Positions 1,598 through 34,314 of a DNA stretch of 35,329 bases are shown piece after piece. Where the stretch lies: the NCBI GenBank assembly GCA_038209745.1, contig JBBQXJ010000050.1:1-35329 (forward strand), in the 5' to 3' direction. How positions within the stretch are numbered: the stretch's first letter is position 1; the number at the start of each line of letters is the position of its first letter. This DNA comes from Verrucomicrobiota bacterium (lineage in GTDB: Bacteria; Verrucomicrobiota; Verrucomicrobiia; Limisphaerales; CANJSG01). Under the pieces are notes generated by a model. It saw nothing but the letters and a program-made list of their open reading frames with translations. It was not told the origin of the DNA and searched no databases. A program made the translations under genes and the position numbers.

Positions 1598-2959
1598 CTA
1601 CGGGGCCGTTTCGATCAAGGCGACGGCTGCAAGAACGTCTTCAGTGGTGAAGTCAGGAGCTGCGTCGAAGCGGCCGTCGGTGCCGGCGTGGCCGGTCTGC
1701 ACGAGGATGGAGCGGAGGCCTGCGTTCTTGGCGGTCTGGAGATCGACGGTGGTGTCGCCGATGAACCAGGACTGGGCGGGGTCGATGTTCAGATCGGCGA
1801 CCGCACGGTCGATCATGCCGGTGCCGGGCTTGCGGCAGTCGCAGGCGATCTTCAGCTCGGGACGTTCTCCGGGGAACCCTTTCTCCGGGTGGTGCGGGCA
1901 GAGGTAGATGCGGTCGAGAAAGGCGTGTTCCAGGCCGAGCAGGGTCTCCAGTTTGTTGTGGGCTTCGCGGACGTCGGCTTCGGTGGCCAGGCCTTTGGCG
2001 ATGACGGGCTGGTTGGTCACGAGGACGGTTCGGTAGCCGAGCTGGTTCAGACGGTGAACGGCCTCGGCGGCGCCGGGGATGAGCTTCAACTGACCAGAGG
2101 AAGTCAGGCCGTGGCGGCTCACTTCCTCGACGAGAGTGCCGTCGCGGTCGAGGAAGACGGCGCGTTGTTTCACGTCGAGGGAGCTTCGGGCGATGGCGCC
2201 GGAAGCGAGCTGCGCGGCGATCTTGTCGTAACGCTCGGGCGTTCCGATGTCCTTGATGAATTCCGGCGTGTTGTAGCCGAGCAACCGTTTCCTGGCGCGG
2301 AGCAGGGCGGGGAAGAGGTCTTTGCCGAAGTCGAGAACCGGGGAGGATCCGGCATCGGCGGCCGATCCCTGATCCCGGATGCCCGATGCCTGATTTCGCC
2401 ACGGAGCGAGCGCGGCCTTCTCCATCACGTAGAGCCCCGCGTTGACCAGATTCTGGCGCCACACTCCCAGAGGATGCGGGCGATTGTGGAAGGCGGTGAT
2501 CTGGTCGTGGTCGTCCACTTCGACGAGGTCGGAATCGAGCGGATGATCGTTGGGATGGAGGACGAGGGTGGCGTCGGCGCGGTGCGACTCGTGGTGGAGC
2601 CAGAGGCGGCCGAGATCGAGATTGACCATGGTGTCGCCGTAGAGGACGGCGAAGCGATCAGCCAAGAGATCGAAGCCATCGAGCACGGCGCCGGCGGTGC
2701 CCAACGGTTCGCGCTCCACGAGGGTGCGGAGCTGGACGCCGAACTTGGAGCCGTCGCCGAAGTACGCCTCGATGATGTCCGCTCGGTAGCAGGCGAAGAT
2801 GAGGATTTCGGTGAACCCGTGTTTGCGACAGAGCTCGATCTGGTGCTCGAGGAGCGGCTTGCCGGCGAAGGGGATCATCGGCTTGGGCAGGTCGCCGAGC
2901 CGGGCGCGCAGGCGCGTGCCCATGCCTCCCGCGAGGATGATGGCTTGGCGGGATATCAT
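1598..2959 (-). CDS. Fused nucleotidyltransferase (HddC-like) / HAD-IIIA heptose-bisphosphate phosphatase (GmhB-like)
   Basis: N-term ILAGGMGTRL..LPKPM, EPLGTAGA, YGD; C-term FLDRDGT, VTNQP, CPHHP..CDCRKP, IGD. Confidence 0.9.
   Translation of the reverse strand: MISRQAIILAGGMGTRLRARLGDLPKPMIPFAGKPLLEHQIELCRKHGFTEILIFACYRADIIEAYFGDGSKFGVQLRTLVEREPLGTAGAVLDGFDLLADRFAVLYGDTMVNLDLGRLWLHHESHRADATLVLHPNDHPLDSDLVEVDDHDQITAFHNRPHPLGVWRQNLVNAGLYVMEKAALAPWRNQASGIRDQGSAADAGSSPVLDFGKDLFPALLRARKRLLGYNTPEFIKDIGTPERYDKIAAQLASGAIARSSLDVKQRAVFLDRDGTLVEEVSRHGLTSSGQLKLIPGAAEAVHRLNQLGYRTVLVTNQPVIAKGLATEADVREAHNKLETLLGLEHAFLDRIYLCPHHPEKGFPGERPELKIACDCRKPGTGMIDRAVADLNIDPAQSWFIGDTTVDLQTAKNAGLRSILVQTGHAGTDGRFDAAPDFTTEDVLAAVALIETAP
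2362..2396. repeat. Five tandem degenerate heptamers inside the HddC-GmhB CDS
   Basis: ccgatcc ctgatcc cggatgc ccgatgc ctgattt; encodes NQASGIRDQGS; related to 26476-26498. Confidence 0.7.
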
Positions 2960-2967
2960 TCAAACAG

Positions 2968-3098
2968 ACCGCACAAAACGCGGAATGACGCAGAAACAAA
3001 TAACGGACGTTCGCTTCCAACTACCGGGCGTTCTCCCACTCGTTTCTAAACGGACTCTGAAAATTTTCCGCGTCATTCGATCTGCGTGTTCTGTGGTT
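2968..3098. repeat. Intergenic imperfect inverted repeat pair
   Basis: gaatgacgcagaaa (2983-2996) vs reverse complement of 3065-3078, gaatgacgcggaaa (13/14); outer arms also similar. Confidence 0.65.
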
Positions 3099-3106
3099 GA
3101 GCCCAG

Positions 3107-4069
3107 TCATGCGCCCTGCTCGGTCGCCACTTGATCGATGGATCGGTCGACGGCGGCGTTGGACGTCAGGCGCGGTGACCAGCCGAGACCCTTCAGCTTG
3201 TCCACCGAGTAGGTGAACTTCGGCACATCGCCCACCCAGCCCCGGCTGCCGCCGGTGTAGCGGATCGTGGCCGACGGGGCGACGCGCTTCACCACGGTTT
3301 CGGCGATGTAGCGGACGGTCGTCGCGGAGTCGGCGGTGCCGATGTTGTAGAAGTTCAGCTTGTCCTGCGCACGGTCCACGATGAAGAGCATGGCTTCGAT
3401 CAGGTCGGCGACGTGGAAGTAGGGCTTCTCCTGTTTGCCGTCGCCGAGGACTTCCAGTTCGGCCGGATTCGCCCGGAGCTTCTGCACGAAGTCGAAGATC
3501 GCTCCGTGGGTGGAGCGGTTCCCCACGACATTGGGAAAACGGAAGATCCACGCGCGGTCGAGCGACGCTTGGAGCGCGGAGGAGATGATCGCTTCGGAGG
3601 CGAGCTTCATGGCGCCGTAGTTCGAGATGGGGAAGAGCGGGCCGGCGTCCTCGACCAGCGCGCCGGGCAGTTCGCCGTAGATGGCGGAGGTGGAGGCGAA
3701 GGCCAGGCGGCGGATGGAGAATTCCTTGAGCACCTTCAGCAGGTTGAACGTGGTGAGGAAGGTGTCGCGGTGGTCGACGTCGGGATCGGCCCCGCCGGCG
3801 CGGATGTCGGAGTTGGCCGCGAGATGCCAGGCGGCGTCGAACGCGGCGGGGGCGGATTCGAGCCGGACGATTTCGCGGAGATTCGGCAGGTCGTTGACGT
3901 CGATCTGGTAGAAGCGGAAGCGGTCGCTTTTCCTCGCGGCGACGAGATTGGACTCGCGGCCGAGCTTCATGTTGTCGACGCCGACGACGGTGCAGCCGCG
4001 CGCGAGGAGCGCGTCCACGAGATGGCTGCCGATGAATCCGGCCGCGCCGGTGACGAGACACTTGGTCAT
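3107..4069 (-). CDS. NAD-dependent epimerase/dehydratase (extended SDR, UDP-glucose 4-epimerase-like)
   Basis: VTGAAGFIGSHL, HLAAN, ASTSAIYG, YGAMK, FRFPNVVG. Confidence 0.92.
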   Translation of the reverse strand: MTKCLVTGAAGFIGSHLVDALLARGCTVVGVDNMKLGRESNLVAARKSDRFRFYQIDVNDLPNLREIVRLESAPAAFDAAWHLAANSDIRAGGADPDVDHRDTFLTTFNLLKVLKEFSIRRLAFASTSAIYGELPGALVEDAGPLFPISNYGAMKLASEAIISSALQASLDRAWIFRFPNVVGNRSTHGAIFDFVQKLRANPAELEVLGDGKQEKPYFHVADLIEAMLFIVDRAQDKLNFYNIGTADSATTVRYIAETVVKRVAPSATIRYTGGSRGWVGDVPKFTYSVDKLKGLGWSPRLTSNAAVDRSIDQVATEQGA

Positions 4070-4138
4070 GCGAAGGAGTGTGGAAGGTGCGGCCACGCGA
4101 GTCCATAGCGGGAAGGTCGGGATGGACTCCGGCGGCCG

Positions 4139-4915
4139 GTGCCGTTACCAACTACGCCCGTGAAAGCTGTCATTCTCGCCGCCGGCAAGGGCACCCGCAT
4201 GGGCGGCCTCACCACCGACATTCCCAAACCGATGCTCCCGGTGCAGGGGCGCCCGATTCTGGAACACATCCTCACCGGCCTGCGCGACGCGGCCGGCATC
4301 CGCGAGTTCTTCATCGTGACGGGGCATCGGGCCGAAGTGGTGGAGGAACATTTCGGCGACGGTTCCAAGTTCGGAGCGACCGTTCGCTATGGCCGGCAAA
4401 TGATGCAGGACGGCACGGGCAAAGCGCCGGAACTCGCGAAGGAGTTTGTCGGCGCCGATCCGTTCCTGCTGACCTATGGCGACATCCTGGTGAAGCCGGA
4501 GACCTACGCCCAGATGGTGGCGCGGTTCGGCGGCGGGGCGTTCGACGGCGTGGTGACGGTGACCGGGAGCGAGGACGTGACCCAGGGCGGATTGTTCTTC
4601 TTCGACGAGGCGTTTTGTCTGAACCACCTGGTGGAAAAACCCTCACAGACGCAGGTGGAGCAGCTCCGGGCCGAAGGCCGGCTGAAGCCCGGAGCGACCG
4701 CCTGGTATAACGCCGGCATCTATGTGTTCCGGCCGTCGGTCTACGACTTCACGGCGCGCCTCCGGAAATCGCCGCGCGGCGAATTCGAACTGACGGACGC
4801 GTTGAGCGCGATGATCGCGGCGGGTCAAAAACTGGCGGGACTCCAGATTCCAGGACGTTGGGTCGATGTGCGGGATCCCGGCGTTTTGGCCAGGGTCGAG
4901 GCGGGCGAAATCTAG
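4139..4915 (+). CDS. Sugar-phosphate nucleotidyltransferase (glucose-1-P thymidylyltransferase-like)
   Basis: VILAAGKGTRMGGLT..PKPM, YGD, EKP, SPRGEFELTDAL; GTG start uncertain (4139 or 4160). Confidence 0.88.
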   Translation: MPLPTTPVKAVILAAGKGTRMGGLTTDIPKPMLPVQGRPILEHILTGLRDAAGIREFFIVTGHRAEVVEEHFGDGSKFGATVRYGRQMMQDGTGKAPELAKEFVGADPFLLTYGDILVKPETYAQMVARFGGGAFDGVVTVTGSEDVTQGGLFFFDEAFCLNHLVEKPSQTQVEQLRAEGRLKPGATAWYNAGIYVFRPSVYDFTARLRKSPRGEFELTDALSAMIAAGQKLAGLQIPGRWVDVRDPGVLARVEAGEI

Positions 4916-5121
4916 CCGCTCGCCGCAGGCGGAGAGAGTCGTCGAAGGTCGGCCGATGGTGGCGACGGTCTTGCGGATGACCGATGATCCGGCGGTCCCA
5001 AGCTGCCCTTCGAGGTTCGTTTCCCAAGCAACCTGGGAAGTCGCCTAGAACCGAGGCAGGCCAATGATCAGGCTCCGAAGCTTGACGCCCGCGCCCGTGC
5101 GCTGGTTTCGTCTGCCGTGTC

Positions 5122-5193
5122 AGGCAATGGATTCTGCCTGCCCGGAACGATCCGGGAAACCGCCGCGGCGAACGCCGGGCTGATGACTCCTAC
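5122..5193 (+). ncRNA. Fluoride riboswitch (crcB motif)
   Basis: GGCAATGGATTCTGCC..AAACCGCC..GGCTGATGACTCCTAC matches the motif consensus; directly upstream of a CLC-F gene. Confidence 0.92.
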
Positions 5194-5297
5194 GCAACCA
5201 AACGTAGGTCCGCCATGCCCGAAAACCGCCGCCGCCGCCACAGCCGACAAGATCCGCTCTCCCCGTCCACGCTTCGTGCCAGGCCGCAGTTCCGCCC

Positions 5298-6635
5298 ATG
5301 AACCTCCGGCGCGAATCTTCCATCTGGCTGGCTCAGGCCCTGATCGCCCTCAAGTGGCTGGGGCTGCTCGTGCCCGTGGCGGCCGCGGTCGGCTCGGCCT
5401 GCGCCTTCTTTCTCTGGAGCCTCGATTGGGCGACCGAATACCGCTTCGTCCATCCGTGGCTCTTGTATCTGCTGCCGGTGGGAGGCGTCGTGATCGGCCT
5501 CATCTACCATCGCTGGGGCAAGTCGATCGAGGGCGGCAACAACCTCATCATGGACCAGATCCACCAGCCGGGCGGAGGCGTGCCGCGACGGATGGCGCCG
5601 TTGGTCCTGTTCGGCACCGTGGCCACTCATTTCTTCGGCGGTTCGGCCGGGCGTGAAGGGACCGCGGTGCAGATGGGTGGAAGCATCGCCGGTGCGTTTG
5701 CCCGGTGGCTGCGGCTGGAATCGGCGGACATCCGGGTCCTGTTGATGGCGGGGGTGGCGGCGGGCTTCGGAGCGGTCTTCGGCACGCCGTTGGCCGGGGC
5801 GGTCTTCGCGCTCGAAGTGCTGATCATCGGGCGAATGGAGTATCGGGCGCTGCTCCCGTGTTTCATCGCATCCGTGCTGGCGGACTGGAGCTGCCACCTT
5901 TGGGGCATCGGCCACACGCAGTATCACGTCGGGTTCACTGGAACCGCCGGCATCACGGGCGCGTTCAAACTGGATCCATGGCTCTTCGGCAAGGTCGTCG
6001 TGTGTTCGGCCGCGTTCGGTCTGGTCAGCGCCTTGTTCTCGGAATTGTCGCACGGGCTGAACGACTGGTTCAAGCGGCTCGTCCCCTATGCGCCGCTCCG
6101 GCCGGCGCTCGGTGGAGGACTGGTCATCGGGTTGACGCTGCTGCTGGGCACACGGGACTTCCTCGGGCTCGGCGTGACGAATCCCGATCCGAACGGAATC
6201 TCCATCGTTTCGTTCTTCACCTCGGCGGAGATCCATCCGTGGGGCTGGTGGTGGAAGCTGCTCTTCACGGCGGTGACGTTGAGTTGCGGGTTCAAGGGCG
6301 GCGAAGTGACGCCGCTGTTCTTCATCGGCGCCGCCCTGGGCAACGCGCTGGCCGGATTGACCGGCGCGCCGACCGATCTGTTCGCCGCGCTGGGCTTCGT
6401 CGCGGTCTTCGCCGGGGCGACCAACACGCCCCTGGCCTGCACCATCATGGGGATCGAACTCTTCGGAGCGGAACACGCGCTGTATCTCGCGACGGCGTGC
6501 TTCATCGCCTACCGGTGCAGCGGACATTCGGGCATCTACCTGTCCCAACGCATCGGCGTGCGCAAGGGCCACGGAGCCGCCATCACGGACGGGAAGACCC
6601 TTCGGCGGATCCGCGAAGAGCGGTCCAAGCCGTAG
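5298..6635 (+). CDS. eriC: CLC-F fluoride/H+ antiporter
   Basis: CLC-F clade signatures GNNLI, GREGT, GEVTP; many TM segments; fluoride riboswitch upstream. Confidence 0.92.
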
Positions 6636-6763
6636 CCTTCCAGGGCCGCTCGCCTCGTCACCGGAAGTTCACTTGGGCGCCTCCTGTCCGACGCCGGCCT
6701 CCCTTCCAATGTTGTGCGTTGATCGGCCGCCCATTCCGGGCCCAAACCAGAAAACAACGAACG

Positions 6764-7531
6764 ATGAACACATCGAACTTCATGGGCGGACGGGTCCTAT
6801 CACGGGGCCAAACCTCGAACGCCTACCGGTTGAGAATGGCCGAGTCGACGGCCGATGTCCGCGCGGCCCAGACGCTCCGCTTTCTCGTCTTCAACCTGGA
6901 GATGAACGAAGGCCTCGAAGCCTCCTACGCCACGCTCCGCGACGAGGATCCATTCGACGCGATCTGCGACCACCTGCTCGTCGAAGAAGAGGCCACCGGC
7001 GACATCGTCGGCACTTACCGGCTCCAGACCGGAACGCGAGCGGCGGCCAACCTCGGGTTCTACAGCTCCCAGGAATTCGACCTCTTCGCGCTGGAACCGC
7101 TTCGCCCCCAGCTCGTCGAACTCGGCCGCGCCTGCGTCCACATCCGCCATCGCAACCTCGCCGTGCTGGCGCTGCTCTGGAAGGGCATCGCGGCCTACGC
7201 CCGTCAACGCGGAGGTCGCTACTTGATCGGCTGCAGTTCGCTGTCCTCCACCGAGGCCAAGGTCGGGGCGTCCGCCTATTCCCATCTCATGCGCCGGCAC
7301 CTGGTCGACGAACCTTTCCAGATCCGTCCGCAAGTCGGCTGGGAATGTCCCCTGGATCAATTGGCCGAAGAGACGCCGAAGATTCCGCGCCTCCTGACCG
7401 CGTATTTGTCCTTCGGCGCAAAGATCTGCGGGCAACCGGCCATCGACCGTGAGTTTCGCACCATCGATTTCTTCACCCTGCTCGATCTGCAGACCTTGCC
7501 GGAAGAGACGGTGAACCGGTTCCTGAAGTAG
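6764..7531 (+). CDS. olsB: GNAT N-acyltransferase, OlsB-like
   Basis: AQTLRFLVFNLEM, DEDPFDAICDHLL, VGTYRL, VELGRACV, YLIGCSS, PAIDREFRTIDFF; start at MNTSNF. Confidence 0.8.
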   Translation: MNTSNFMGGRVLSRGQTSNAYRLRMAESTADVRAAQTLRFLVFNLEMNEGLEASYATLRDEDPFDAICDHLLVEEEATGDIVGTYRLQTGTRAAANLGFYSSQEFDLFALEPLRPQLVELGRACVHIRHRNLAVLALLWKGIAAYARQRGGRYLIGCSSLSSTEAKVGASAYSHLMRRHLVDEPFQIRPQVGWECPLDQLAEETPKIPRLLTAYLSFGAKICGQPAIDREFRTIDFFTLLDLQTLPEETVNRFLK

Positions 7532-7701
7532 CTGGGATCCGCCGCTGGGCAGACACCCCTCCTCGTTGTTTTTGTCTGCCAAGATCTCAGGGTGACGTCG
7601 CCTGGGTTTGGAAAGCAGATCGAGAAAACGGGCAGGGATGCCCGCCCGGCGCGACCTCCGGACTTCCGGTCAACCGTCCCGTCGGTGTTCAATCGTTACC
7701 G

Positions 7702-8481: not shown

Positions 8482-8488
8482 GCTCCGC

Positions 8489-10750
8489 TCACTCCCTCGC
8501 CGTGTTCTCATAGCGGACTCCCTCGGGCACGGGAACCGCCACCGGAACGGTGGTCCCGTGGCGACCTTCCGTGAGACGCGACGCGTCGACCGCCACGAAC
8601 GCGGTGAAGGCCGACATCAAATCGTAGTCGAGCGCGAGCTGCTTGATCTGCCGGCTGTAGAACCAGCTGTTTTCGCGAGTGCCCTCGCGGGCAAGGTGGC
8701 CGATCTTCATGCGGGCCCAGACGCTGGGCAGCGCTTCGTGGCCGGCGGCCGTGTTGTCGAGGTCGACGGGCAGATCCAGCGTCAGCTTGCGCTCGGCGCT
8801 GCGGCCCTTGATGTTAATCTTTCTTCCGCCGCCTCCCTTGAAACGCCCGGTCAAGATCACCGGGCGGCCCACGAAGAGATCGGGCACCTTCTTCGGGAAA
8901 ACCTCCTCCACGTCCATCCCGTCCCAGTCGATCGTCACGTCGGTCAAGGCCGGGTGGCTGATGCGGTCGAAGAACCCATTCATCACGGAGGCCGCGTCGT
9001 CGTGCAGCCCGAGATACGCGACGGCCCCGCGCCCCAGCTTGGCCATGCTGTCCATCAGGTAGCGGTTCACCGCCGAGCCGACGCCGAAGCTGGAGATCCG
9101 GGAGTCGCCGAGCCGCTGGTCGATCTCCTTGAGGATCTCCACTTCGTTCCCGATGTAGCCGTCGGTCAGGAAACAGACGAAGCGCAGCCGGCGCGGATCA
9201 TGGGGAAAGTTCAACGCCGCTTTGATCCCTTCGATCATCATGGTGCCGCCGTCGCTGTTCAGCCGGCCCAGATAGGAAAGTCCGCGCCGGATGTTGTTCG
9301 GGGTCGCGGCCAGCGGTGCGCCGCCGAGCTGCGAAGCCCGATTGGAGAAGTTGATGATCTGGAAGGTGTCGTCCGGATCGAGACGGTTGAGCGCGCTCGC
9401 GATGGCGGCCTTGGCTTGGGCCAGCGGTTCGCCGTTCATGCTCCCGGAACAATCCAGCACGAAGACCAGTTCCAGCGCCTGCCGATGCAATCGCTCCAGC
9501 GTGGCCGGAGGCTGGAGCATCAGCGTGAAATAGCCGCCGCGTTCGTCGTGATGCGTGAGCATGCTGGATTGGATCGCGTCGCCGGCCAGCCTGTAGCGCA
9601 GAACGAAGTCCCTGTTCGGCACGGTGTCCGAGGGACTGAGCGTGACAACTGTGTGGCCGGGTCCCTTTGCCGTCTGTTCGATGCGGTGGGTCTTGCAGAC
9701 GAGTTCCTGGATCTCCATGCCGGCGTCGAGATCGACCTTCAAGGCGATGTCATGACCGCTGCGCTCGCCGGGCGCGAGGGAGGAGACTTCCGTCGGCTGA
9801 CCCGACCCGCCCGATGCGCCCCGTGCGACGGCCCCGACCCCTTTGGCCGAGCCGGGCGGGTTGAAGCGCGGGCCGACCACCATCGGAAAGACGAACTCAT
9901 ACCAGCCGTCTTCCTGCCGCAAGGTGTTGAAGTAGCGGAGAGTGACGTCGATGTCGTGGCCGGGTTCGATGTTGGCCACGGCTTGGGTGAAGATGTTTGG
10001 CCGATTCTGCGTGAGGAGCGACGCGGTGTAGCCTTGGGCTTTGGCGTCGGCGTAGATCTTCTCCGCCTCTTCCTTTTCCCGGATCACGCCGCGGATCTTC
10101 CGCGAGCCGATGGTCATGACGAACTCGTTGACGGCGGCGTTCTCCGGCAGAGGGAAGACGTAGAGCGCCTCGATCTTGCCGTCGTAGGGATTGTGGAACT
10201 GCTGGGTGACGCGGACGCTGCCGATGGAGCCGCAGATGCTGGCCTGCACGTCGGTGTGCTTCAGCGGCAACGCGACCTCGCGCTCCTCGTATCGCGTCAT
10301 CAACGAGCCCGAGCGCGGGATGTCGTCGTCGGAAACGGCGGAAGATTTGGGGTAGCGGGAAATGACCCAGAGCTCTTCGTCGGGAGAGGGGAAGGAGCCT
10401 TCGGGAGCCTCGGAAAGTGTAATATTGCCCAGACTTCGGCCGAACGTTTGGGGAGCATTCCAAGGCCGAGCGAACTCGGATCCACCGTAGGGCAGAGGTG
10501 GCAGCCCGTTCGGAGATTTGGAGCAGCCGGACCACCACAAAACCATCGCAGCAGCAGCGAGCAGCCCCAACCAACGAGCGGGCGACCCACCGCTGGTCCC
10601 TACCAGGAGGGGAATAATCAACCGACAAAGACCGCTCTCCGGCGCTTCGCGACTTCCCCTCCTGGGACGGGTCGGGGGTGGGTCGGCGTTGAAACCATTG
10701 GCGTTTTCTTCCGCCGCTCTGCGGCTGGGTTCTGTTCCTCGTGGCTTCAT
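8489..10750 (-). CDS. VIT + vWA domain protein, probable lipoprotein
   Basis: VIT (LPLKHTDV..FPLPENAAV), MIDAS DCSGS, LTDG; hydrophobic stretch ending WSGC; AGAGGA RBS before ATG 10750. Confidence 0.88.
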   Translation of the reverse strand: MKPRGTEPSRRAAEENANGFNADPPPTRPRRGSREAPESGLCRLIIPLLVGTSGGSPARWLGLLAAAAMVLWWSGCSKSPNGLPPLPYGGSEFARPWNAPQTFGRSLGNITLSEAPEGSFPSPDEELWVISRYPKSSAVSDDDIPRSGSLMTRYEEREVALPLKHTDVQASICGSIGSVRVTQQFHNPYDGKIEALYVFPLPENAAVNEFVMTIGSRKIRGVIREKEEAEKIYADAKAQGYTASLLTQNRPNIFTQAVANIEPGHDIDVTLRYFNTLRQEDGWYEFVFPMVVGPRFNPPGSAKGVGAVARGASGGSGQPTEVSSLAPGERSGHDIALKVDLDAGMEIQELVCKTHRIEQTAKGPGHTVVTLSPSDTVPNRDFVLRYRLAGDAIQSSMLTHHDERGGYFTLMLQPPATLERLHRQALELVFVLDCSGSMNGEPLAQAKAAIASALNRLDPDDTFQIINFSNRASQLGGAPLAATPNNIRRGLSYLGRLNSDGGTMMIEGIKAALNFPHDPRRLRFVCFLTDGYIGNEVEILKEIDQRLGDSRISSFGVGSAVNRYLMDSMAKLGRGAVAYLGLHDDAASVMNGFFDRISHPALTDVTIDWDGMDVEEVFPKKVPDLFVGRPVILTGRFKGGGGRKINIKGRSAERKLTLDLPVDLDNTAAGHEALPSVWARMKIGHLAREGTRENSWFYSRQIKQLALDYDLMSAFTAFVAVDASRLTEGRHGTTVPVAVPVPEGVRYENTARE
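10583..10685. repeat. Inverted repeat element in 5' part of the VIT-vWA CDS
   Basis: 32-bp arms 10583-10614 and 10654-10685, 26/32 complementary. Confidence 0.75.
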
Positions 10751-10757
10751 GGTTCCT

Positions 10758-11321
10758 CTACGGGTTCTCATCGGGCGTCTTCTCCTTGGCGTCGGCGGTG
10801 GCGGTGATCTTGGTGCCATCCACGGTGGCAGCGGTGGCCAGCGTGACGGAAAACTTGGGCTCGGTCTTGCCGGTCACCCGAAGGTGAATCGTGGCGATAC
10901 GGGTCCGGCCGTGGGGCAACTTGGTAGCCGGCTTCGTGCTGAAGGCGGCAAGAACGACGTGGTCCTTCTGCATCGCCTTCGGATCGTAGTGCGGTGGCTC
11001 GCTGAAGGCCGGGCTGTCGCCGCCTTCGATGCCGGCGATCTTCACCTCGCCCTGGGTGGCCTTGACCGTGAGTTGATAGGCGGCAAGGGGCGCGGAACCG
11101 GAATCAATGAAGACCTCCAGCGTCATGAAGCGCGGGCCTTTGTCGCTGGTCGTGCGCCAGTCCTCGGCGGCATGGGCGGTGTCGAACGACGTGTGAAAGA
11201 ACATGGCAAGGACCGCGGCCAATAACGTGGTGAACTTGGCCGGGTCGAAGAGCGAGCGTCCGTAGATGTTGGCGGTGGAGCACCGCCGCAGTCCAAAAGC
11301 GTCGCCAAATTCGCGGTTCAT
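10758..11321 (-). CDS. Secreted beta-rich protein, possibly cohesin-like
   Basis: ATGA overlap with upstream stop; signal-like LLAAVLAMFF..AHA; beta-strand pattern LEVFIDSGSAPLAAYQLTV..TRIATIHLRV. Fold call is inference. Confidence 0.7.
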   Translation of the reverse strand: MNREFGDAFGLRRCSTANIYGRSLFDPAKFTTLLAAVLAMFFHTSFDTAHAAEDWRTTSDKGPRFMTLEVFIDSGSAPLAAYQLTVKATQGEVKIAGIEGGDSPAFSEPPHYDPKAMQKDHVVLAAFSTKPATKLPHGRTRIATIHLRVTGKTEPKFSVTLATAATVDGTKITATADAKEKTPDENP

Positions 11322-11878
11322 ATCCCGGTGGGCAGGCGCACGGCCTGGTTGGCGGCGAAGTCCACATCGCGCTGATCCACGCGGCCGTCGCCGTTGAGAT
11401 CGAACTCGGGCCCGGCCGTTCCCGCCGCCAGTTTTCGGGCCAGGAGGAAGGCATCGAGCACATCGACTTGTCCGCTGTGATCGAGGTCCGCCCGGAGATC
11501 CTGTTGGGTGGTGCGTTCCCAAGGACGGAGCAGGAACAACCCAATGACCAGCGCGGCTGCTGCGGCCAACCAAGGGTAGGGCGACGCCTCCCGGCGAGCC
11601 GCCTGGGGGCGAACAATCTTGAGGGTGGCTTCTCCGGCATCTTCAAAACGCCTGGAAGTCGCCGGAGTTGCTGCCTCGGTGATTGAACGCCCCAAGGGCG
11701 GCTCGGCGGGCGCCGTCGCCCTACCGCCCTCTCGCAGGAGATGATCGGCAGCCGCCTTGGTGATGGCCTCGTCGATGGAAGACGGAACGACGATTCGGGG
11801 CCGGCTTAGGGACCGCAACGCCTCGGCCAGCTTCGGCGGAAGCTCGGGCTCGGGCTGGTTTTCGGGATCTGGCTTCAT
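11318..11878 (-). CDS. Putative anti-sigma factor with C-terminal dockerin/EF-hand-like domain
   Basis: Follows ECF sigma; single TM; paired Ca-loops DLDHSGQVDVLD and DLNGDGRVDQRD. Confidence 0.78.
   Translation of the reverse strand: MKPDPENQPEPELPPKLAEALRSLSRPRIVVPSSIDEAITKAAADHLLREGGRATAPAEPPLGRSITEAATPATSRRFEDAGEATLKIVRPQAARREASPYPWLAAAAALVIGLFLLRPWERTTQQDLRADLDHSGQVDVLDAFLLARKLAAGTAGPEFDLNGDGRVDQRDVDFAANQAVRLPTGI
11575..11725. repeat. GTAG REP doublet inside the anti-sigma CDS
   Basis: 29-bp arms 11575-11603 and 11697-11725, 26/29 complementary, both starting GGTAG. Confidence 0.85.
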
Positions 11879-11889
11879 CGTCGTCGTAG

Positions 11890-11922
11890 GTTCAGCACTT
11901 CAGCGGGGAAAAAGGTTCACGG
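11890..11922 (-). promoter_or_regulatory. Putative ECF promoter for the anti-sigma gene
   Basis: CCGTGAACC-N17-GCTGAAC; same motif and spacing as 12525-12557. Confidence 0.6.
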
Positions 11923-12522
11923 CTCAAAGAAGCGGCGGGTGCGAGGATCCTCGCGCAGCATCCGGACCCCGTTGTGCAGCCGGGATTTTACCGTGCCGAG
12001 AGGGACCTCCAGCGCTTCGGCTATTTCGGCGAGACTCAGTCCGTCCACATGGCGCAGCCAGAGGGTTTCCCGATGCTCCTCCGGCAGGCCGGCCATGACG
12101 GTGGCCAGTTCGGCGAGTCGGGATTCCGATGGCTGGGCGGATGCAGGTTCTTCCGCAGCGACGGAATTGAGCGTCTCTGGATCGACCGAGTTCAGGCGAA
12201 CGATCTTGCGTCGGACGTTCAGGGAAAGGCTGCGGACCACGGGGTAGAGAAAGGTCCGGAACTGGCAGGAGAGCTCGAAGCCGGGGAACTTCTTCAGCAC
12301 ATAGAGGAAAGTTTCCTGCAACACGTCGAGCGCCAGATCGGGATCGCCGGTGAAACGATGGGACAAGGCGACCGCCCAGTCCCGATGCCGCTGGTAGAGA
12401 GCCTCAAACGCAGCCGGATCGCCGGCGTTGATCGCGGCGATGAGCGACTGATCGGTGGCTGTCTCTGCGGCGTCCGTCGGCAATGTCGGGATGCTGGGCC
12501 GGTCAGGTTGAGCGGCCAACAT
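11917..12522 (-). CDS. ECF sigma-70 factor
   Basis: GDPAAFEALY, ALDVLQETF, FRTFLY, GLSLAEIAEALEVPLGTVKSRL; start uncertain. Confidence 0.9.
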   Translation of the reverse strand: MLAAQPDRPSIPTLPTDAAETATDQSLIAAINAGDPAAFEALYQRHRDWAVALSHRFTGDPDLALDVLQETFLYVLKKFPGFELSCQFRTFLYPVVRSLSLNVRRKIVRLNSVDPETLNSVAAEEPASAQPSESRLAELATVMAGLPEEHRETLWLRHVDGLSLAEIAEALEVPLGTVKSRLHNGVRMLREDPRTRRFFEP

Positions 12523-12524
12523 CT

Positions 12525-12557
12525 GTTTAGCCAACGGGACGGAGGAAAGGTTCACGG
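12525..12557 (-). promoter_or_regulatory. Putative autoregulated ECF promoter
   Basis: CCGTGAACC-N17-GCTAAAC just upstream of the sigma gene. Confidence 0.6.
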
Positions 12558-12559
12558 TA

Positions 12560-13140
12560 ATTCGCGAGGCAAATGTAGCCGGCGAGTCTGGAGCGGAGGG
12601 GTTCGCGGATTTCGGGAAGCGAGTCATTGGGGAAGGGGTCGGGCAGGAGGGCCAGGAGGGCCAGGAGGGCGTTGCGGATGAGGGCGGGGTTGGCCAGCAG
12701 GTTGGGCTTGCGACTGCGGGAGCGGTCCACGCCCATGGGCGTGGCGCGGGGCCAGTGGTTGCGATTCTCCACGCCGCCCCGGTGGCCGCAGATCAGGACT
12801 CTCGACGGTGGCTTGACCCATCCGGCCACGCCCAGGGCCTAAGAGGCCAGGTTGGGCGATGCCCCCTTGGGCGCGAGGACCAGGAACCGTCGATTCTGGA
12901 CGACCCGCTTGAGGCGCTCCACCCGCAGGGAAGCGGTCTCCAGACCCACAGCGCCACGACCCGCCCGTCGAACTCGACGACCTGACGGAGGCGATCACCG
13001 ACCGGGTGGCCCGCGCCCGGAGAATGGTGCGTTGCCCGTTGAGGGAAGAACCACCCGGTCTCCTCCGGGCCCGAAACCCGCACGTTGCTTGCCAGCCGGG
13101 TCGTCGTTGGATCCGCGTCCCATGCTTTCATCCCACCCCG
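12560..13140 (-). pseudogene. Internally deleted ISAs1-family transposase remnant with DUF4338-like N-terminus
   Basis: THHSPGAGHPVGDRLRQVV and VVQNRRFLVL..PNLAS*ALG (DUF4338-like, frameshift, stop) joined to GGVENRNHW..DRSRSRKPNLLANPALIRNALL (ISAs1 C-terminus). Confidence 0.75.
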
Positions 13141-13301
13141 CCGAACCGAAAAAGTGCGTTCGAGTTCAGCCAAATCTCCCCGCCTTGTGGCTCAGCGTCT
13201 TCGGCCGTAGGAAAAAAGAACCCTGTAGCAAACTCGCCCCTCTCCGAGTTTTTGCTCGCCAAGCCTACCGGTCCCGGGCAAATACCCTGCCTTTTTGAAC
13301 G

Positions 13302-14843: not shown

Positions 14844-15040
14844 GTTTTCCAACCTTCTTCGAGAACCTAAAAGCCTTCCGCGCCTGGCTGGATTCCAGCG
14901 CGTTCTCGAAGACGGAGTTGCTGGTGGGCTTCCGCAAGGTCGGCTCCGGCCTTGCGCGCCTTTCCTGATCCGACTCCGACGGATGAAGCCCTCTGCTTCG
15001 GCTGGATCACCGGCGTGCGCCGCAGGAGCGCGGACGGTCA
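14840..15040 (+). pseudogene. YdeI/OmdA-family fragment
   Basis: FRAWL..ELLVGFRKVGSG, then TGA at a usual Trp and a +1 frameshift into DEALCFGWITGVR. Confidence 0.75.
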
Positions 15041-15361
15041 CGTTCGCGAGGCCGCGTCCGGAGGGCTAGAGCGGCTCAAAAAATTCCTTGGCCGCCTTTT
15101 CAAGGCCACAGGCCTCGAACGTGAATAGCTCCGGGTGCAACCGGTAGACACCCGCTTGGTTTCCGCTACCGCCTCGGCCTCCACGGCGGCCGCCAGACCC
15201 ACCAACCGCCGCGCTGTGGGGTCGTCGGCCGCTTGTCCCAGAGATTGGAGAACGGCCGAACCCCCAGCGCGCTCCAAACCACGTTGGCCGGGTCGGCATC
15301 GGTTACACGCATAGGGCCAAGCGGGGCCCCAGCGGACGAAGATCCACAGACCGTCGGACGA

Positions 15362-16708: not shown

Positions 16709-16823
16709 CGCTGCGAACCGTATCCGCCAGCCGCCGCCTGTAAACTGCGGACGGTGCTGGTCGCGCCAGCGTCTTGGACTGCGGCGCCGCTGGGTTCAAA
16801 TCGTGGGCGCTGCGAACGATCTA

Positions 16824-18359: not shown

Positions 18360-18500
18360 GGAACGCCTCTCCTGTTCCGCCTGCCCAAGACCCACGCGGA
18401 TGCCCGGGCTTTTGTGGTTGTCCGGGTTTAAGGTTTGATGGCAGAAGGTACCCCGTTTCTGCGGTTCAAGATGCCTCTTCATTTCAATTCTCCTCCCGCT

Positions 18501-19376: not shown

Positions 19377-19453
19377 CCGCCGACAACCTGTCCTTCTACC
19401 GACTCGCAGGTGCTTGCTTGCCCGCGACCCAGGACGCGGAGGACTATCGTTCC

Positions 19454-20455: not shown

Positions 20456-20570
20456 ATCGACCCCGCTCGGCGCAAAGTCCCCTGAATGGGTTGCTGGCCA
20501 GACGGGTCAAAAAAAAGTTCGCTGCGTTGAGAATTCTCGATTTCCGTCCACTGTCCCTTAGTTCGCCGCC

Positions 20571-23795: not shown

Positions 23796-23814
23796 CCCCT
23801 CTCCTGAGCCAATA

Positions 23815-25299: not shown

Positions 25300-25453
25300 T
25301 CCGGCAGATCCGCCCTTGCCACTCAGGAGAAAGAGAGGGCCCGGATGGAGTGGGCGGGTGAGAAGAGGCGCTCGACCGATACCGCGCAATCAGAGTTGCG
25401 GGGCGCCGTCGCCTCGCTCGGGACACGGAGGCCTTCCGCCCCTCTTTTTGGCG

Positions 25454-26257
25454 TCAGGGTAGGGCGATCTCCCGCGATTTCCGGCCTTCGAACATCCGGA
25501 ATTTCGTGAAGCCCGCCGCCTTGGCCGCAGCGATCGCCTTGTCGAAGGCGGCTCCCACTTCTCCCGGAGCGTGCGCGTCGGAGCCGAAGGTGATGGGCAC
25601 GTCCAGTTCGTGGGCCAGCTTGAGGAACGCGGGCCCCGGATAGATCTCGCGACAGTCTTTGCGCAAACCGGCGGTGTTCAGCTCGATGGCGCAACCGGCT
25701 TTCTTCGCCGCCTCGAGAAAGGTGCGAAACAATCCCGAACAGTCTTCCTTGGGCACGATGTTGAACTTCTTGGGCAGGTCGGCGTGGCCGATGATCTCGA
25801 AGAGTCCGCTGGCGGCCGCGGCGGTGAGACGCTTGAAGTATTCGGTCCACACTTGGATCGGGTCGCGCGTCTTCCATTCGGAAAGTTTGTTCGGATTGTC
25901 CACGTCCCATGTGTCGGAGACGTAGTGGACGGAGCCGATGAAGTAGTCCCAGGGATGGAGCGACGCGAGGTGGCGGATCCATTCTTCCTGACCGGGCAGA
26001 TAGTCGACTTCCATGGCGAGGCGGATGGTGAGCTGCGGGAAGTCGCGCCGCGCTTTCATCACCTTCTCCACGTAGTCGCCCAGTTGGTCGAAGCGCATCC
26101 GCCAGTCGTCGAAGTCGTCCCTCTTCATCGGAGAGTGGTCCGACATTCCGATCTCGCGGAGTCCGAGCTCCACGGCGCGCGCGGCGTATTCGGAAGGCTC
26201 GCCGACGGCGTGGCGGCAAAGCGGAGTGTGCATGTGGTAGTCGGGCAACGACATCAT
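25454..26257 (-). CDS. PHP-family histidinol-phosphatase (HisJ/HisK-like)
   Basis: DYHMHT, SDH, IGSVH, IGHADL, ELNT, GSDAH. Confidence 0.88.
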   Translation of the reverse strand: MMSLPDYHMHTPLCRHAVGEPSEYAARAVELGLREIGMSDHSPMKRDDFDDWRMRFDQLGDYVEKVMKARRDFPQLTIRLAMEVDYLPGQEEWIRHLASLHPWDYFIGSVHYVSDTWDVDNPNKLSEWKTRDPIQVWTEYFKRLTAAAASGLFEIIGHADLPKKFNIVPKEDCSGLFRTFLEAAKKAGCAIELNTAGLRKDCREIYPGPAFLKLAHELDVPITFGSDAHAPGEVGAAFDKAIAAAKAAGFTKFRMFEGRKSREIALP

Positions 26258-26475
26258 TTGCCCATCTTAGAAAGCCGAGCCAGCGGTCGTCGATCCCGCG
26301 TTGAACGGTCCAACAGTCCACGCCCGGGGAGCACTCCACCCATTTCGATCATGGCGCCGACCGCGTCAATCTGTGCGCCAACGACAGCAGTGTTCCGGCG
26401 CAGAACACCGATGTCCGCTTTTTCGGTCCATGGCGAACTCCGAAGGCGATGCCATGGGCCGTAGTCCGTTTGCCG

Positions 26476-26498
26476 GGCATCAGGTATCGGGCATCAGG
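26476..26498. repeat. Intergenic heptamer tandem
   Basis: ggcatca ggtatcg ggcatca gg; 16/17 match to the reverse complement of the repeat at 2362-2396. Confidence 0.55.
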
Positions 26499-26909
26499 TG
26501 AGATGAATTTGTCGCTTCAGGATCCCTCCTTCGCGCAGGCGATCACAATAATGGGACCGCCAAATCGGGCGCTCGGCCAACAATTACTCCCAGGCTCTGC
26601 GGGCGCGACATCTCCAAGAATCCGATCACCTCGAGCTCGACGGCTTCCGAAGGCGGTAATGCCTTCGCCGTCGATGGCCACGTCCAGCGGCGCCGTTTCG
26701 ACCGACTGGAGCTGCGCACCCCAGTAAACGGCCCGGAACTCGCCGTCTTCTGGTGGTGCGGGCCCCCACAGTTTTGCCGGAAGGATGCAGTGAACGGAAC
26801 CAGCCTCCGTCTGCCCTTGGACGACCTTTTGGCTCTCACCATCGCACCCAGCGTTGCTTCGGATGGTTCGGTGCCTTCGATTTCCGGCTATCGGTCGCTG
26901 ATGGACCGC

Positions 26910-27198
26910 GATGCGGTGCTGACCCTCGGCGGACGCCGCATCTATCTCAGCGGCGACACCGGGATCACGCCCGAGATGCGGGCCCTCACGAACATCGACG
27001 TCGCGTTGCCGTGCATGAATCGGCCCTTCACGACGACCGCCGCCGACGCGACCAATACGGTCCGCGCGTTCCTCCCGAAGGGGGTTTATCCCTGCCGCTA
27101 CCGAGACCAAGAGCGGTTCGACCGCCAATGCCGATACGTTCAAGCAGCGACTGGGCACCGACACCGGCGTCGAGGTCCGGTTGAGGAACTGGCATTGA
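26910..27198 (+). pseudogene. MBL-fold metallo-hydrolase 3' fragment
   Basis: VLTLGGRRIYLSGDT..PEMRAL.NIDVA..CMN.PF; YPCRY lacks the usual His; frameshift into FKQRLGTDTGVEVRLRNWH*; no HxHxDH half. Confidence 0.75.
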
Positions 27199-27268
27199 AC
27201 GGGATGGTTTCGACCGGAGCCGCTTGGGCCGGGCTTGCCCGTGAATCCCGCAACGCTAGCCTGCGCGC

Positions 27269-28036
27269 GTGACGTCCTCCTCCGCCAAGTCTCCGGGGTC
27301 CGATCAGTCCCGTCCGCCGGACAAGTCGCCCCGCGTCTTCGCCACCACCCAATGGACCGCCGTCTTGCGGGCCCGGGGTTCCGATTCGCAGGCGCATGAA
27401 GCCCTCTCCCGGCTCTGCCAGACCTATTGGTATCCGCTGTATGCCTTCGTCCGCCGGGAAGGCCACGATCCGGCGGACGCGCAGGATCTGACCCAGGAAT
27501 TCTTCGCCCGGCTGCTGGAAAGCCAGTGGTTGGCCGAGGTCGATCCCGGGCTGGGTCGGTTTCGGTCATTCCTGCTGGCCTCGCTGAAACATTTCCTGGC
27601 GAACGAGCGCGCCAAGGCCCGCACCTTGAAACGCGGCGGCGGCGTCCCCCATGTCCCTTTCCAGCTCGATACCGGAGAGGAACGCTTCCGCCACGAACCC
27701 GCCGACAACCGGTCCCCTGACAAGGCCTACGACCGCCAATGGGCCCTCATGCTCCTGGCGCGTGCCCTCGATCAACTCCGCGAGGAACTCGTCGCCTCCG
27801 GCAAGGAGACGCTCTTTGCGACCCTCAAAGATGCTCTTGGCGGCGACCGCCACGCGGTGCGCTACGTCGAACTGGGCGAGCAATTGGGCCTCTCCGAAAC
27901 CGCCGTCAAGGTGACCGTCCATCGCCTGCGCAAGCGCTACCGCGAGCTTCTGCGCGCCGCCATCGCCGACACGCTGGTCGAAGGAGCGGACGTCGAGGAA
28001 GAGCTGCGCCACCTCCAAGCAGCGCTGAGTGCATGA
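27269..28036 (+). CDS. ECF sigma factor, kinase-associated type
   Basis: FATTQW..LCQTYWYPLYAFVRR, DAQDLTQEFF, GRFRSFL, AVKVTVHRLRKRY. Confidence 0.9.
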   Translation: MTSSSAKSPGSDQSRPPDKSPRVFATTQWTAVLRARGSDSQAHEALSRLCQTYWYPLYAFVRREGHDPADAQDLTQEFFARLLESQWLAEVDPGLGRFRSFLLASLKHFLANERAKARTLKRGGGVPHVPFQLDTGEERFRHEPADNRSPDKAYDRQWALMLLARALDQLREELVASGKETLFATLKDALGGDRHAVRYVELGEQLGLSETAVKVTVHRLRKRYRELLRAAIADTLVEGADVEEELRHLQAALSA

Positions 28037-28040
28037 GAGA

Positions 28041-28147
28041 AAATTCGAAACGCGAAGGCCAAAACGCGAAGAACCTCGTGGATTCAAATCCGAAATCCCC
28101 GTTCCCCTCGCATCCCTTCGGACTTTGACCTTCGGATTTCGTGCTTT
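28041..28147. repeat. Inverted heptamer-based repeat between ECF and kinase
   Basis: aaattcg aaacgcg aaggcca aaacgcg aa vs ttcggac tttgacc ttcggat ttcgtgc ttt. Confidence 0.65.
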
Positions 28148-28198
28148 TTCCCGGGTAACCTTTCGCCGTCGATCTGTCTGTAAGAGAGCAGAGACACC

Positions 28199-30520
28199 AT
28201 GCGCACACCACGAATCTGCCCCACCTGCGGAAAGCCCGTTCCCCCCGACGCCCCGCACGACGTCTGTCCCGCCTGCCTGCTCCAAGGCGGCTTCGCCACC
28301 GGCAGCCTCGCCTCCGAAGCGCCCGGCTCGCGGCCGCGCTTCACCGCTCCGACCCTGGACGAATTGGCCCCGCTCTTTCCCCAGCTCGAACTGCTGGAAT
28401 TCATCGGCCAAGGCGGCATGGGCGCCGTCTACAAGGCTCGCCAGAAGGAATTGGACCGCCTCGTCGCGCTGAAAATTCTCCCGCCCGGCATCGGCGATGA
28501 TCCTGCCTTCGCCGAACGTTTCAGCCGCGAAGCCCGCGCCCTGGCCAAGCTGAACCATCCCGGCATCGTCACCCTCTACGAGTTCGGCAAAACCCGTAGC
28601 CGCCGAGGTGACGAGGCGGAACTTTCGAGCCCCTCGAGGCCGGGCATCTCTGCCCGGCCCGCTTCCGACGAATCCGAGAACATCGACGAAAGCACGGCCA
28701 AGCCTGCCTCCGATCCGCCTCCTTACCTCGGCGGCTTCGGTCCGCTCTACTACTTCCTCATGGAGTTCGTGGACGGGGTGAACCTTCGCCAACTCCTCGG
28801 CACCGACCGCGTCTCGGCCCGCGAAGCCTTGGCCATCGTCCCGCAGATCTGCGACGCGCTCCAGTTCGCCCACGACCAGGGCATCGTCCACCGCGACATC
28901 AAGCCGGAGAACATCCTCCTCGACCGGAGGGGCCGGGTGAAGGTGGCGGACTTCGGTTTGGCCAAGCTGGTGGCTCCCGGTGGGGCCGAGTTGCCGCTCG
29001 GCCCTGATTCAAGGGCTGCACAGCAGCACAGCTCCACCGGGATCATGGGCACCCCGCACTACATGGCGCCCGAGCAGTCCAGCCGCCCCGCCGAAGTCGA
29101 TCACCGCGCCGACATCTACGCCCTCGGCGTCGTCTTCTACCAGATGCTCACCGGCGAACTGCCGGAGAAGCAGCTCCAGCCCCCGTCCAAGAAAGTCCAG
29201 ATCGACGTCCGTCTCGACGAGATCGTCCTCCGCGCCCTGGAGAAGAATCCGGACCAACGCTATCAACAGGTCAGCCAGATGAAGACCGGCGTGGACGCGA
29301 TCAGCGAATCGCCCCTTCCCGGTAGCCGCGGACATGAGTCCGCGCCATCCGTCGAATCGGAAGATCAGCGCCGGCTCACGGCGGCGGCTACGACGACCGG
29401 TTACGCTCGTCTTGCGCTGGGATTCTTCCTCGCCGGCACCTTGGGGACGCTTCTCTTGATGACCGTTTCCTACCGGCACGACATGGCGCTCATCTTCGGC
29501 GGCGTCGCCTTGGTGCTGGCCTTCGTCTTCGGCTGTCTGGGCTGGCGACAACGAATGGGCAAGTTCGTGGTCATCACCCTGTCGGCGGTTGTCTTGATCG
29601 TGGTGCTTGGGGCCTCGGCGGCTTTCCTCTTTTGGGGAATGTCCAAGGATCGCGCCGAAGCCAGCGCCCGCAACGCGGAAGCCAGAGCTCGGTTGGATCA
29701 GGTCAAAACGATGGTGGTCGCCTCCAACAAGTTCGCCTCGTCCCAACCCGCTCTCCTTGCCTCCCGTCCGGCCGACGCGCCCAAGCTCCTCTTCCTCGCC
29801 TCGCTGGCGGCCTACCTCGCCGATACGAACCGTGTCTTCCATCCCGATGGATCGCCGGTCGTGAGCGCCGAGGAGCGACTCTGGGTCGCGGAGACCTCTC
29901 CCAAGTATGACGTCACCGGTGGTTCCGTCTTGGAGTCAGACGAGCTTCGGCTTTGGTTTTCCGTTCCGGGCACGGCTGACTTCTCAAACTACGAGCTGGA
30001 TTTTCTGGATGGCTCCGGCAACCCCGTTCCCGCTGGACCAGGCGGTTCGACCCACCTCCAGTTCGGCGAGACTGAAGTCGGGAATGAGACGATCGGATGG
30101 TTCACTATGACGGTCGCCGGCCACGGAGCGCCGCCTCGTGCGACCCTCCGCTTGACCTACACGTCCGGTTCCGAGGGAGCGCCCCAGGAAATTGTTCCGA
30201 AACCCAATGTGAATCTTCTGCAAAGGCTCGAGGACGAAAGCCTGTTGAGCGCCGTCGGCGAGAACGCGGACGGCGATGCCTTCGTCTCGATCACGACCGA
30301 TCCTCGGCAGGGGAAGCGGCATCTGACAGAAGTCTTCGCCATCGCCAAAGACGATCGGGAGATCGGCTCCAACGGAAGCGCCAGTCTGGGCGACCGCAAA
30401 TCCGAGACTCGGACACAGCTCTTCGATTTCCGGATCCACTTGGCCGACGTCGCGAAGTTCCGCATCGCCTTCCGACCGATCCACACCGTGGAGTGGAAGG
30501 ACGTGCTGCTGCCGAAGTGA
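28199..30520 (+). CDS. Membrane Hanks-type Ser/Thr kinase with N-terminal zinc ribbon
   Basis: [44 protein letters not shown]; about 3 TM helices; C-terminal domain. Confidence 0.95.
28596..28738. repeat. GTAG REP doublet 1 in kinase
   Basis: 25-bp arms 28596-28620 and 28714-28738, 22/25 complementary. Confidence 0.88.
28977..29040. repeat. GTGG REP doublet 2 in kinase activation loop
   Basis: 29-bp arms, 21/29 complementary; left arm 25/30 identical to 34285-34314. Confidence 0.8.
29322..29391. repeat. GTAG REP doublet 3 in kinase juxtamembrane linker
   Basis: 24-bp arms 29322-29345 and 29368-29391, 19/24 complementary, both starting GTAGCCGC. Confidence 0.82.
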
Positions 30521-34284: not shown

Positions 34285-34314
34285 GGTGGGGCAGCGGTGC
34301 CGCGCAGCCCTGAT
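34285..34314 (+). repeat. Intergenic single REP copy
   Basis: ggtggggcagcggtgccgcgcagccctgat, 25/30 identical to 28979-29008. Confidence 0.7.

Follow-up and report, generated by a model that had tools for sequence, protein, structure and literature searches.

In-frame repeats of several families in loops of verrucomicrobial proteins and their recurrence at the same sites

The host genes and their repeat segments

The window analysed here is the whole 35,329-nucleotide stretch of contig JBBQXJ010000050.1 (assembly GCA_038209745.1) from a Verrucomicrobiota bacterium, which is contig C50 of the host genome G000 (4.58 Mb, 63% GC, 92% complete). It carries two extracytoplasmic function (ECF)-type loci, one with a sigma factor, an anti-sigma factor with a dockerin, a cohesin-like protein and a VIT-vWA lipoprotein (8489-12555) and the other with a sigma factor and a kinase (27269-30520), together with an HddC-GmhB fusion gene (1598-2959). 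The original prediction held that at least seven segments in the coding sequences of these loci derive from several palindromic repeat families that have entered the genes in frame. All seven lie within stop-free frames, and five host genes are concerned. The ratios of non-synonymous to synonymous substitution rates (dN/dS) given below were computed outside the inserts.

1598..2959, minus strand: HddC-GmhB fusion (nucleotidyl transferase and HAD phosphatase); dN/dS 0.19-0.22 against five genus orthologues
2362..2398, minus strand: heptamer tandem repeat, family H1, in a loop of HddC-GmhB; about 15 extra residues, no palindrome
8489..10771, minus strand: VIT-vWA lipoprotein; dN/dS 0.27; its start overlaps the end of the upstream gene, as in the orthologue L042/L046
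10583..10685, minus strand: family G5 inverted dimer, in frame where the VIT-vWA gene encodes the n-region of its signal peptide
10758..11321, minus strand: secreted cohesin-like protein; dN/dS 0.38
11269..11301, minus strand: single G12 arm in the cohesin-like gene, in frame, between an ATGA-coupled start and the signal peptide
11318..11878, minus strand: anti-sigma factor with C-terminal dockerin; dN/dS of the C-terminal part 0.25
11575..11725, minus strand: full-length GTAG-tagged inverted dimer of about 150 nucleotides, family G1, in frame in the anti-sigma gene, in the linker before a hydrophobic helix
28199..30520, plus strand: membrane Ser/Thr kinase with a PknB-like fold; core dN/dS 0.07-0.18 (four comparisons)
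28594..28740, plus strand: kinase insert 1, a 49-codon inverted dimer of family G16 with GTAG tags, within the loop that joins two N-lobe beta-strands (beta4-beta5; site S1)
28975..29042, plus strand: kinase insert 2, family G13 inverted dimer, filling the activation loop (site S2)
29322..29391, plus strand: kinase insert 3, decayed GTAG-tagged inverted dimer, in the linker from the kinase domain to the first membrane helix

The repeat origin of the segments was borne out when each was compared with the whole genome (blastn-short, E<=0.05, other copies only). Six of the seven have 5-71 other copies per arm and are not single-copy: 43 for the HddC segment, 14 and 20 for the VIT arms, 20 for the cohesin-like unit, 59 and 71 for the anti-sigma arms, 30 and 23 for kinase insert 1 and 15 and 5 for kinase insert 2. 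Kinase insert 3, with only 2 and 0, is barely repeated in this genome. Three ordinary coding stretches gave 0, 2 and 2 copies as controls, and the reversed genome gave 0-3. The intergenic units at 34285, 26476 and 16774, correctly taken as related by the original prediction, have 23, 10 and 10 other copies, the last being a single partial arm, as is the cohesin-like unit.

A palindromic nature was confirmed for five segments. These fold as long hairpins in single-stranded DNA, with z-scores of -9.8 (anti-sigma), -6.8, -4.5 and -2.75 (kinase inserts 1, 2 and 3) and -3.8 (VIT); the exceptions are the cohesin-like segment, one partial arm (-2.0), and the HddC heptamer array, which forms no hairpin (+0.7). 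A GTAG-like terminal tag beside a short palindrome is found in the anti-sigma insert and the three kinase inserts (degenerate in kinase insert 2). All four are inverted doublets folding into a long hairpin (z -2.75 to -9.8), and three of them are dispersed in multiple copies (5-71 per arm, as against 2 and 0 for kinase insert 3). The HddC, VIT and cohesin-like segments lack such a tag and are not classed as GTAG-type repetitive extragenic palindromic (REP) sequences or as REPINs. No Rfam family matched any of the inserts.

All five host genes have dN/dS well below 1 (0.07-0.38) and are under purifying selection, which speaks against neutral evolution of the hosts. The expected addition of in-frame peptide loops holds for the five internal inserts (three in the kinase and one each in the anti-sigma and HddC-GmhB genes), and alignments with orthologues show all of these except kinase insert 3 as insertions. 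The HddC loop has 32 residues here versus 17 in 10 of 27 orthologues. The anti-sigma dimer retains the internal hairpin of its family, as its alignment with 21 other G1 dimers showed; the stretch is absent from three of four orthologues and the fourth has a different, shorter one. Positions 10540-11626 are matched without difference by a contig of run X1, which is possibly the source sample. As a separate observation, the TAG stop codon of HddC-GmhB comes from a G2 repeat arm at 1578-1602; across the genome, overlap with a called stop codon is seen for 57 of the 441 non-internal elements.

The VIT and cohesin-like segments do not fit the loop description. Both lie between a coupled start, which overlaps the end of the upstream gene as in L046, and the hydrophobic core of the signal peptide, and they probably lengthen a cleaved signal peptide. 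Alternatively, the true start may lie downstream of the repeats; cleaved off or upstream of the start, they would add no loop to the mature protein. Two VIT-vWA orthologues have other repeat-like N-terminal stretches (read by eye), and in ten variants listed out of a larger number from other runs the frame stays open and the second ATG is removed. In the cohesin-like orthologues L046 and L048 the signal peptide stands directly at the start. The label 'cohesin-like' is a lead only: the protein has no Pfam hit, and in the one Atlas cluster to which it belongs 14% of the members carry PF00963.

The kinase matches Pfam Pkinase, and its best fold match is PknB (E 2.6e-16). The glycine loop, the VALK lysine and the HRD..KPEN, DFG and APE motifs are intact despite the inserts. 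Where insert 2 lies, the native LTxAGK motif is gone and a repeat-encoded threonine stands just before the GTP motif; the same loss, with a repeat-end threonine before GTP, is seen in four non-sister relatives. Activation-loop threonines are phospho-acceptors in PknB-type kinases. Insert 3 occupies a variable linker behind the domain, where no empty orthologous site could be aligned, and relatives of its repeat family occur mainly in other verrucomicrobial kinase loci. The AlphaFold model (mean pLDDT 66, pTM 0.60) shows the inserts in predicted loops: insert 1 is placed between strands 72-77 and 130-135 as a beta-hairpin loop and insert 2 within the activation segment, both at low pLDDT, and the end of the C-lobe is likewise poorly modelled. 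Contigs from two other studies span insert 1 with strain differences, and two contigs spanning it show 16 gap positions; contigs of four DNA runs contained no usable empty allele, and arm joints there could derive from other repeat copies. Of 23 runs listed, none was an RNA run containing the sequence. A second kinase of the same type (G000:C16:54519-55097, L031) has a TGA inside the match.

Recurrence at the same loops and distribution in the genome

The closest relatives of the kinase are mostly from Verrucomicrobiota, several from subdivision 3 or Limisphaerales. Among 110 loci, 106 distinct domains were compared; of the four left out, three were not extracted and one was a duplicate, all four align in a single frame and one has a stop inside. 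No frame-breaking insert was seen in the kinase loci. Only S1 and S2 vary by at least six residues across the 106 kinases, the S1 loop having 5 residues in 55 of them versus 53 in the window kinase. A de novo inverted-repeat scan, independent of any library derived from the loops, found strong inverted repeats at S1 in 20 of 106 loci (4.0 per kb) and at S2 in 31 (3.3 per kb); for comparison, the kinase core has 0.04 per kb, the C-terminal coding part 0.05 and coding DNA of G000 0.07.

Unsupervised clustering of the loop inserts gave 20 clusters, of which one is the native loop and some split a single family (names of individual loops were read by eye). Eight touch S1 and 15 touch S2, with three common to the two sites. 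In four of five genomes tested, group A proved to be a dispersed repeat, groups B, C, D and F match G000 repeatedly, and clusters E, I, L, Q, R and S have no match in G000, the only genome searched for them. Since the first query carried inserts, another collection was searched with an insert-free query (75 loci parsed of 80). Activation loops of at least 25 residues contained a repeat in 16 of 25 cases (two identical) and loops of 17-19 residues in 0 of 50, as expected if the enlarged loop is the target.

Insert family is incongruent with gene relatedness. At S1 the window kinase has the same family as its genus orthologue, at S2 a different one; their left S1 arms are identical over 25 nucleotides at a core synonymous divergence (dS) of 0.5, and their spacers are unrelated. 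HddC has one variable site among 27 orthologues, with at least four families by eye. Its alleles in G004 and G001 have flanks that are 98.5% and 96.7% identical, yet one carries the heptamer array and the other a palindromic element, which is itself dispersed in all five genomes tested (13, 19, 2, 40 and 13 matches). In MutS, 9 of 30 orthologues have inserts at one loop, each a different repeat by eye; the inserts share their right junction and eight of the nine fall in one clade of nine. PolA has long variants in other genomes at two sites that carry inserts in G000, but with 16 sequences only, too few for a conclusion. These recurrence figures are counts and not tests, because kin are not independent; each site has seen no fewer independent events than it holds distinct families.

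Some further observations concern the same proteins. A third recurrent kinase site lies 35-51 nucleotides past the end of the domain (L123, L124, L143, L149, L153, L156, L162, L166 and L196), is filled mostly by one repeat family and is where C-terminal halves diverge; it could mark domain-swap junctions. The HddC copies of G001 and G005 agree over the whole element, with a difference of about 10% between the genes, and the palindromic insert of G003 (L040) shows a compensatory stem change relative to both.

For a genome-wide census, local inverted repeats were turned into 33 weight matrices, with thresholds taken from the reversed genome. The loose set comprises 535 elements, 94 of them internal and in frame in 74 open reading frames (ORFs). 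The strict set comprises 445, of which 70 are internal and 375 are not; the 70 lie in 52 ORFs, MutS, UvrA, PolA, DnaE and tRNA synthetases among them. The figure of 70 is approximate, because the inserts of the anti-sigma, VIT and cohesin-like genes escaped the classifier, which also put one element in a shadow frame. The 24 internal calls dropped by the strict cut include clear false ones, one of them presumably a conserved GlyA motif, and probably true ones such as kinase insert 3. Per kb, the strict set has 0.022 elements in coding DNA and 0.26 elsewhere. Housekeeping genes are common among 60 of the 74 hosts scanned (Mfd, UvrA, MutS, PolA, DnaE, RecG, RecJ, HrpA, ValS, IleS, LeuS, MetG, PheT, MetH and NAD synthetase), so that the proposed link of the inserts to ECF signalling loci is a local feature of the window and does not extend to the genome. 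Two or three inserts are found in 15 of the 52 host ORFs against 1.4 expected from length (maximum 6 in 5000 simulations), and nested and mixed-family inserts occur.

Families differ in where they lie. G3 (16 of 24 copies), G11 (9 of 13) and H1 (24 of 41) are mostly internal, as is G6, and G4 (0 of 25), G2 (0 of 22) and G17 (0 of 16) never are; the tagged families of the window are mostly non-internal (G1 33 of 36, G16 14 of 16, G13 13 of 14). Of the 16 internal G3 copies, 10 lie in one open frame and 6 in the other, and none in the frame that would turn the tag into a stop. No signal of target-site duplication was detected in 105 dimers, whose boundaries are approximate: flanks shared 4-, 5- and 6-mers in 30, 7 and 0 dimers versus 31.0, 8.4 and 1.6 after shuffling.

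How the loops may have been filled

In agreement with the original prediction, a profile search of the genome gave no RAYT hit on the window's contig. RAYT-like genes occur on other contigs (PF01797 at four places, NF047646 at six), none of the six NF047646 hits reaching the cut-off (best 79.7 of 80 bits). Repeat arms lie on both sides of such hits for G2 (C5), G13 (C78, with no clean ORF recovered) and G11 (C11), and on one side for G16 (C23) and G15 (C25). The proposed GTAG/RAYT setting is consistent with this for families of the kinase; the HddC and VIT segments, being non-GTAG, fall outside it. Their families have other neighbours: G5 brackets the one DUF559 gene of the genome, and H1 brackets one four-helix-bundle gene, the only one of six flanked by a modelled family. 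The three PF13366 genes of the genome are flanked by three 10-mer families. Judged by position, these RAYT-like and other neighbouring genes may be those that mobilise the repeats. Flanking on both sides by any modelled arm is confined to 83 of 3466 called genes. In a side observation, the G11-flanked RAYT-like domain lies in frame inside a 1694-residue sugar kinase/pyrophosphorylase-like ORF (G000:C11:3258-8339, L069).

We consider it reasonably probable that selfish repeats were filtered into tolerant loops and then retained and turned over there, their presumably translated peptides being tolerated passengers. Several small non-autonomous families would have spread through the genomes of this lineage; the GTAG-type REP dimers would probably have been moved by RAYT-like HUH transposases, and the DUF559-linked and heptamer repeats would be unrelated to them. 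Most copies would be extragenic, and genic copies would survive only in frame, stop-free and in a tolerated loop or linker. Loss of a loop copy is probably difficult, since a viable deletion would have to keep the frame and stay within the loop, and an enlarged, presumably neutral loop would take more insertions, deletions and recombinational swaps, so that the same few loops would fill and turn over by replacement across the order.

Several results weigh against this filtering account. The kinase loops are occupied (20 and 31 of 106) far more densely than even the extragenic DNA of G000. The family bias is left without explanation (G3 versus G4, Fisher p=2e-7), and stop-codon content was rejected as its cause, since open-frame counts differ out of step with it. 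Internal copies are no more and no less decayed than the others (p=0.54), a fresh 25-nucleotide S1 arm at a core dS of 0.5 is unlike the neutral decay of one old insert, and among the RAYT-like hits examined none is flanked by G1, G3 or G12.

Directed replacement would account better for the family bias, for the fresh arms and for the native loops that are replaced. In this reading mobilising enzymes, or repair after their nicks, would target the resident hairpin or repeat, exchange repeat for repeat and steer some families into coding DNA. The native loop is indeed often replaced by the insert rather than interrupted, different families share the MutS junctions, the family switches between HddC alleles that are 97-98% identical, fresh arms come with different spacers at one offset, and the bias is not accounted for by stops; REPs are, moreover, described in PMC3116915 as targets of some insertion sequence (IS) elements. 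We nevertheless regard this as unlikely. Head offsets in the activation loop vary by about 20 nucleotides between families (by eye), the empty MutS sites show no common target sequence, the 105 dimers give no duplication signal, and homologous recombination between strains could produce the swaps with no special enzyme. Adaptive use, with activation-loop and regulatory-linker inserts selected for tuning autophosphorylation, substrate access or mRNA folding and translation, is less probable still. The case for it rests mainly on the activation loop, because LTxAGK is replaced there by a repeat-encoded threonine at the same position in the window kinase and four others, and it draws further on the very high occupancy of that loop in one kinase subfamily and on the compensatory stem change in the G003 HddC element. 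The inserts, however, have no peptide sequence in common across families and range from 14 to 55 residues, repeat-free alleles are common within the same clades, and the HddC and MutS loops, which have no signalling role, behave alike.

The combined proposition that the occupied loops are exchange cassettes, in which unrelated repeats are directed to the resident one and replace it, that the activation loop of this kinase subfamily is hypervariable, and that the repeat-encoded threonine of the window kinase replaces the phospho-acceptor motif and is used in regulation, strikes us as rather doubtful. That assembly or annotation produced the inserts as artefacts, or that the genes holding them are dying, is the least credible reading. 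The genome is metagenome-assembled, some single-arm census calls are false (24 were dropped), and the two N-terminal inserts could precede the true start, a caution voiced in the text of Di Nocera et al. (PMC3733652). For the internal inserts this reading is refuted by the dN/dS of the five host genes, the intact catalytic motifs, the contigs of other runs or studies that match 10540-11626 or span kinase insert 1, and orthologous inserts in independent genomes.

Known systems and further features of the window

Multi-family in-frame colonisation is already known in this phylum, because Di Nocera, De Gregorio and Rocco (2013; PMC3733652) reported it in Opitutus terrae, which, by their description, had the most intragenic GTAG repeats among the genomes examined, with double inserts and DNA-repair genes as hosts. 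O. terrae, from the same phylum, is therefore a closer precedent than the palindromic elements of Rickettsia named by the original prediction. As described there, several GTAG families lie in frame in known proteins, as singles and dimers, with double and mixed-family inserts per gene and with DNA-repair genes and helicases as hosts. Part 1 of supplement S3 lists 70 O. terrae entries from three families (GTAG-17, -18 and -19), one a Ser/Thr kinase, a number close to the 70 strict internal elements here. That paper treats tagged REPs alone, whereas non-GTAG families insert here too, and by its account REPs in one gene category lie mostly at different sites, whereas here one loop carries many families across relatives. 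Neither same-loop recurrence with different families nor kinase activation-loop inserts were found in the open-access literature beyond Di Nocera et al. (2013).

Other systems share single traits. As in the descriptions of REPINs and REPtrons (PMC3116915, PMC3733652), there are inverted dimers, variable spacers, long hairpins and RAYT-like genes flanked by the same arms; unlike in P. fluorescens SBW25, where by the published count only 14 of 1067 occurrences overlap genes (Bertels & Rainey, 2011; PMC3116915), some families here are mostly intragenic. Rickettsia palindromic elements stand in frame in conserved genes and add peptides, and expression of proteins carrying them has been reported (Ogata, 2000, as cited in PMC3733652 and PMC3184786). 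In the present, different organism, conserved genes likewise have in-frame inserts at surface loops, as sequence and model show. MITEs (miniature transposable elements with inverted repeats) fused to ORFs, in the account of Delihas (2011; PMC3184786), are likewise short non-autonomous repeats with inverted ends inside genes or at their ends; unlike IS-derived MITEs, the 105 dimers here lack a target-site duplication signal.

Since the basic phenomenon has been published, the window alone is a further example. Recurrence across the order is of greater use: it amounts to a scan, by natural insertions, of the loops at which essential enzymes and kinases accept 10-60 foreign residues, and it allows a test of whether resident repeats are targets of REPs or whether REPs only build up where they are tolerated. 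The natural activation-loop variants raise the question of whether selfish DNA can supply a regulatory phosphosite. There is also a warning for the annotation of Verrucomicrobiota, where such inserts break up profile matches and displace start calls.

The remaining features of the two loci and the intergenic repeats are as follows.

11917..12555 (start approximate), minus strand: ECF-type sigma factor of the first locus, no insert
16760..16790, no strand: partial G12 arm, intergenic
26474..26502, no strand: H1 heptamer repeat, intergenic
27269..28036, plus strand: ECF-type sigma factor 5' of the kinase, no insert
28044..28143, no strand: inverted pair of heptamer repeats, family H2, intergenic between sigma factor and kinase
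34285..34314, no strand: single G13 arm, intergenic

More intergenic arms lie at 15024-15142 (families G4 and G18) and 7629-7644 (a partial G3-like arm). IS-like multi-copy stretches stand at the contig start (1-145, a 21-copy end) and the contig end (34701-35329, a transposase fragment), and a broken IS-like multi-copy element at 12612-13218 lies upstream of the first sigma factor. The four-gene unit 8489-12555 (ECF sigma factor, anti-sigma factor with dockerin, secreted cohesin-like protein and VIT-vWA lipoprotein) is conserved in 4 of 40 other genomes searched, and its dockerin and cohesin-like protein are a possible sensing pair. A fluoride riboswitch (RF01734) at 5114-5199 lies upstream of the ORF at 5298-6635, which we take, from its sequence, to resemble a CLC-type fluoride exporter.

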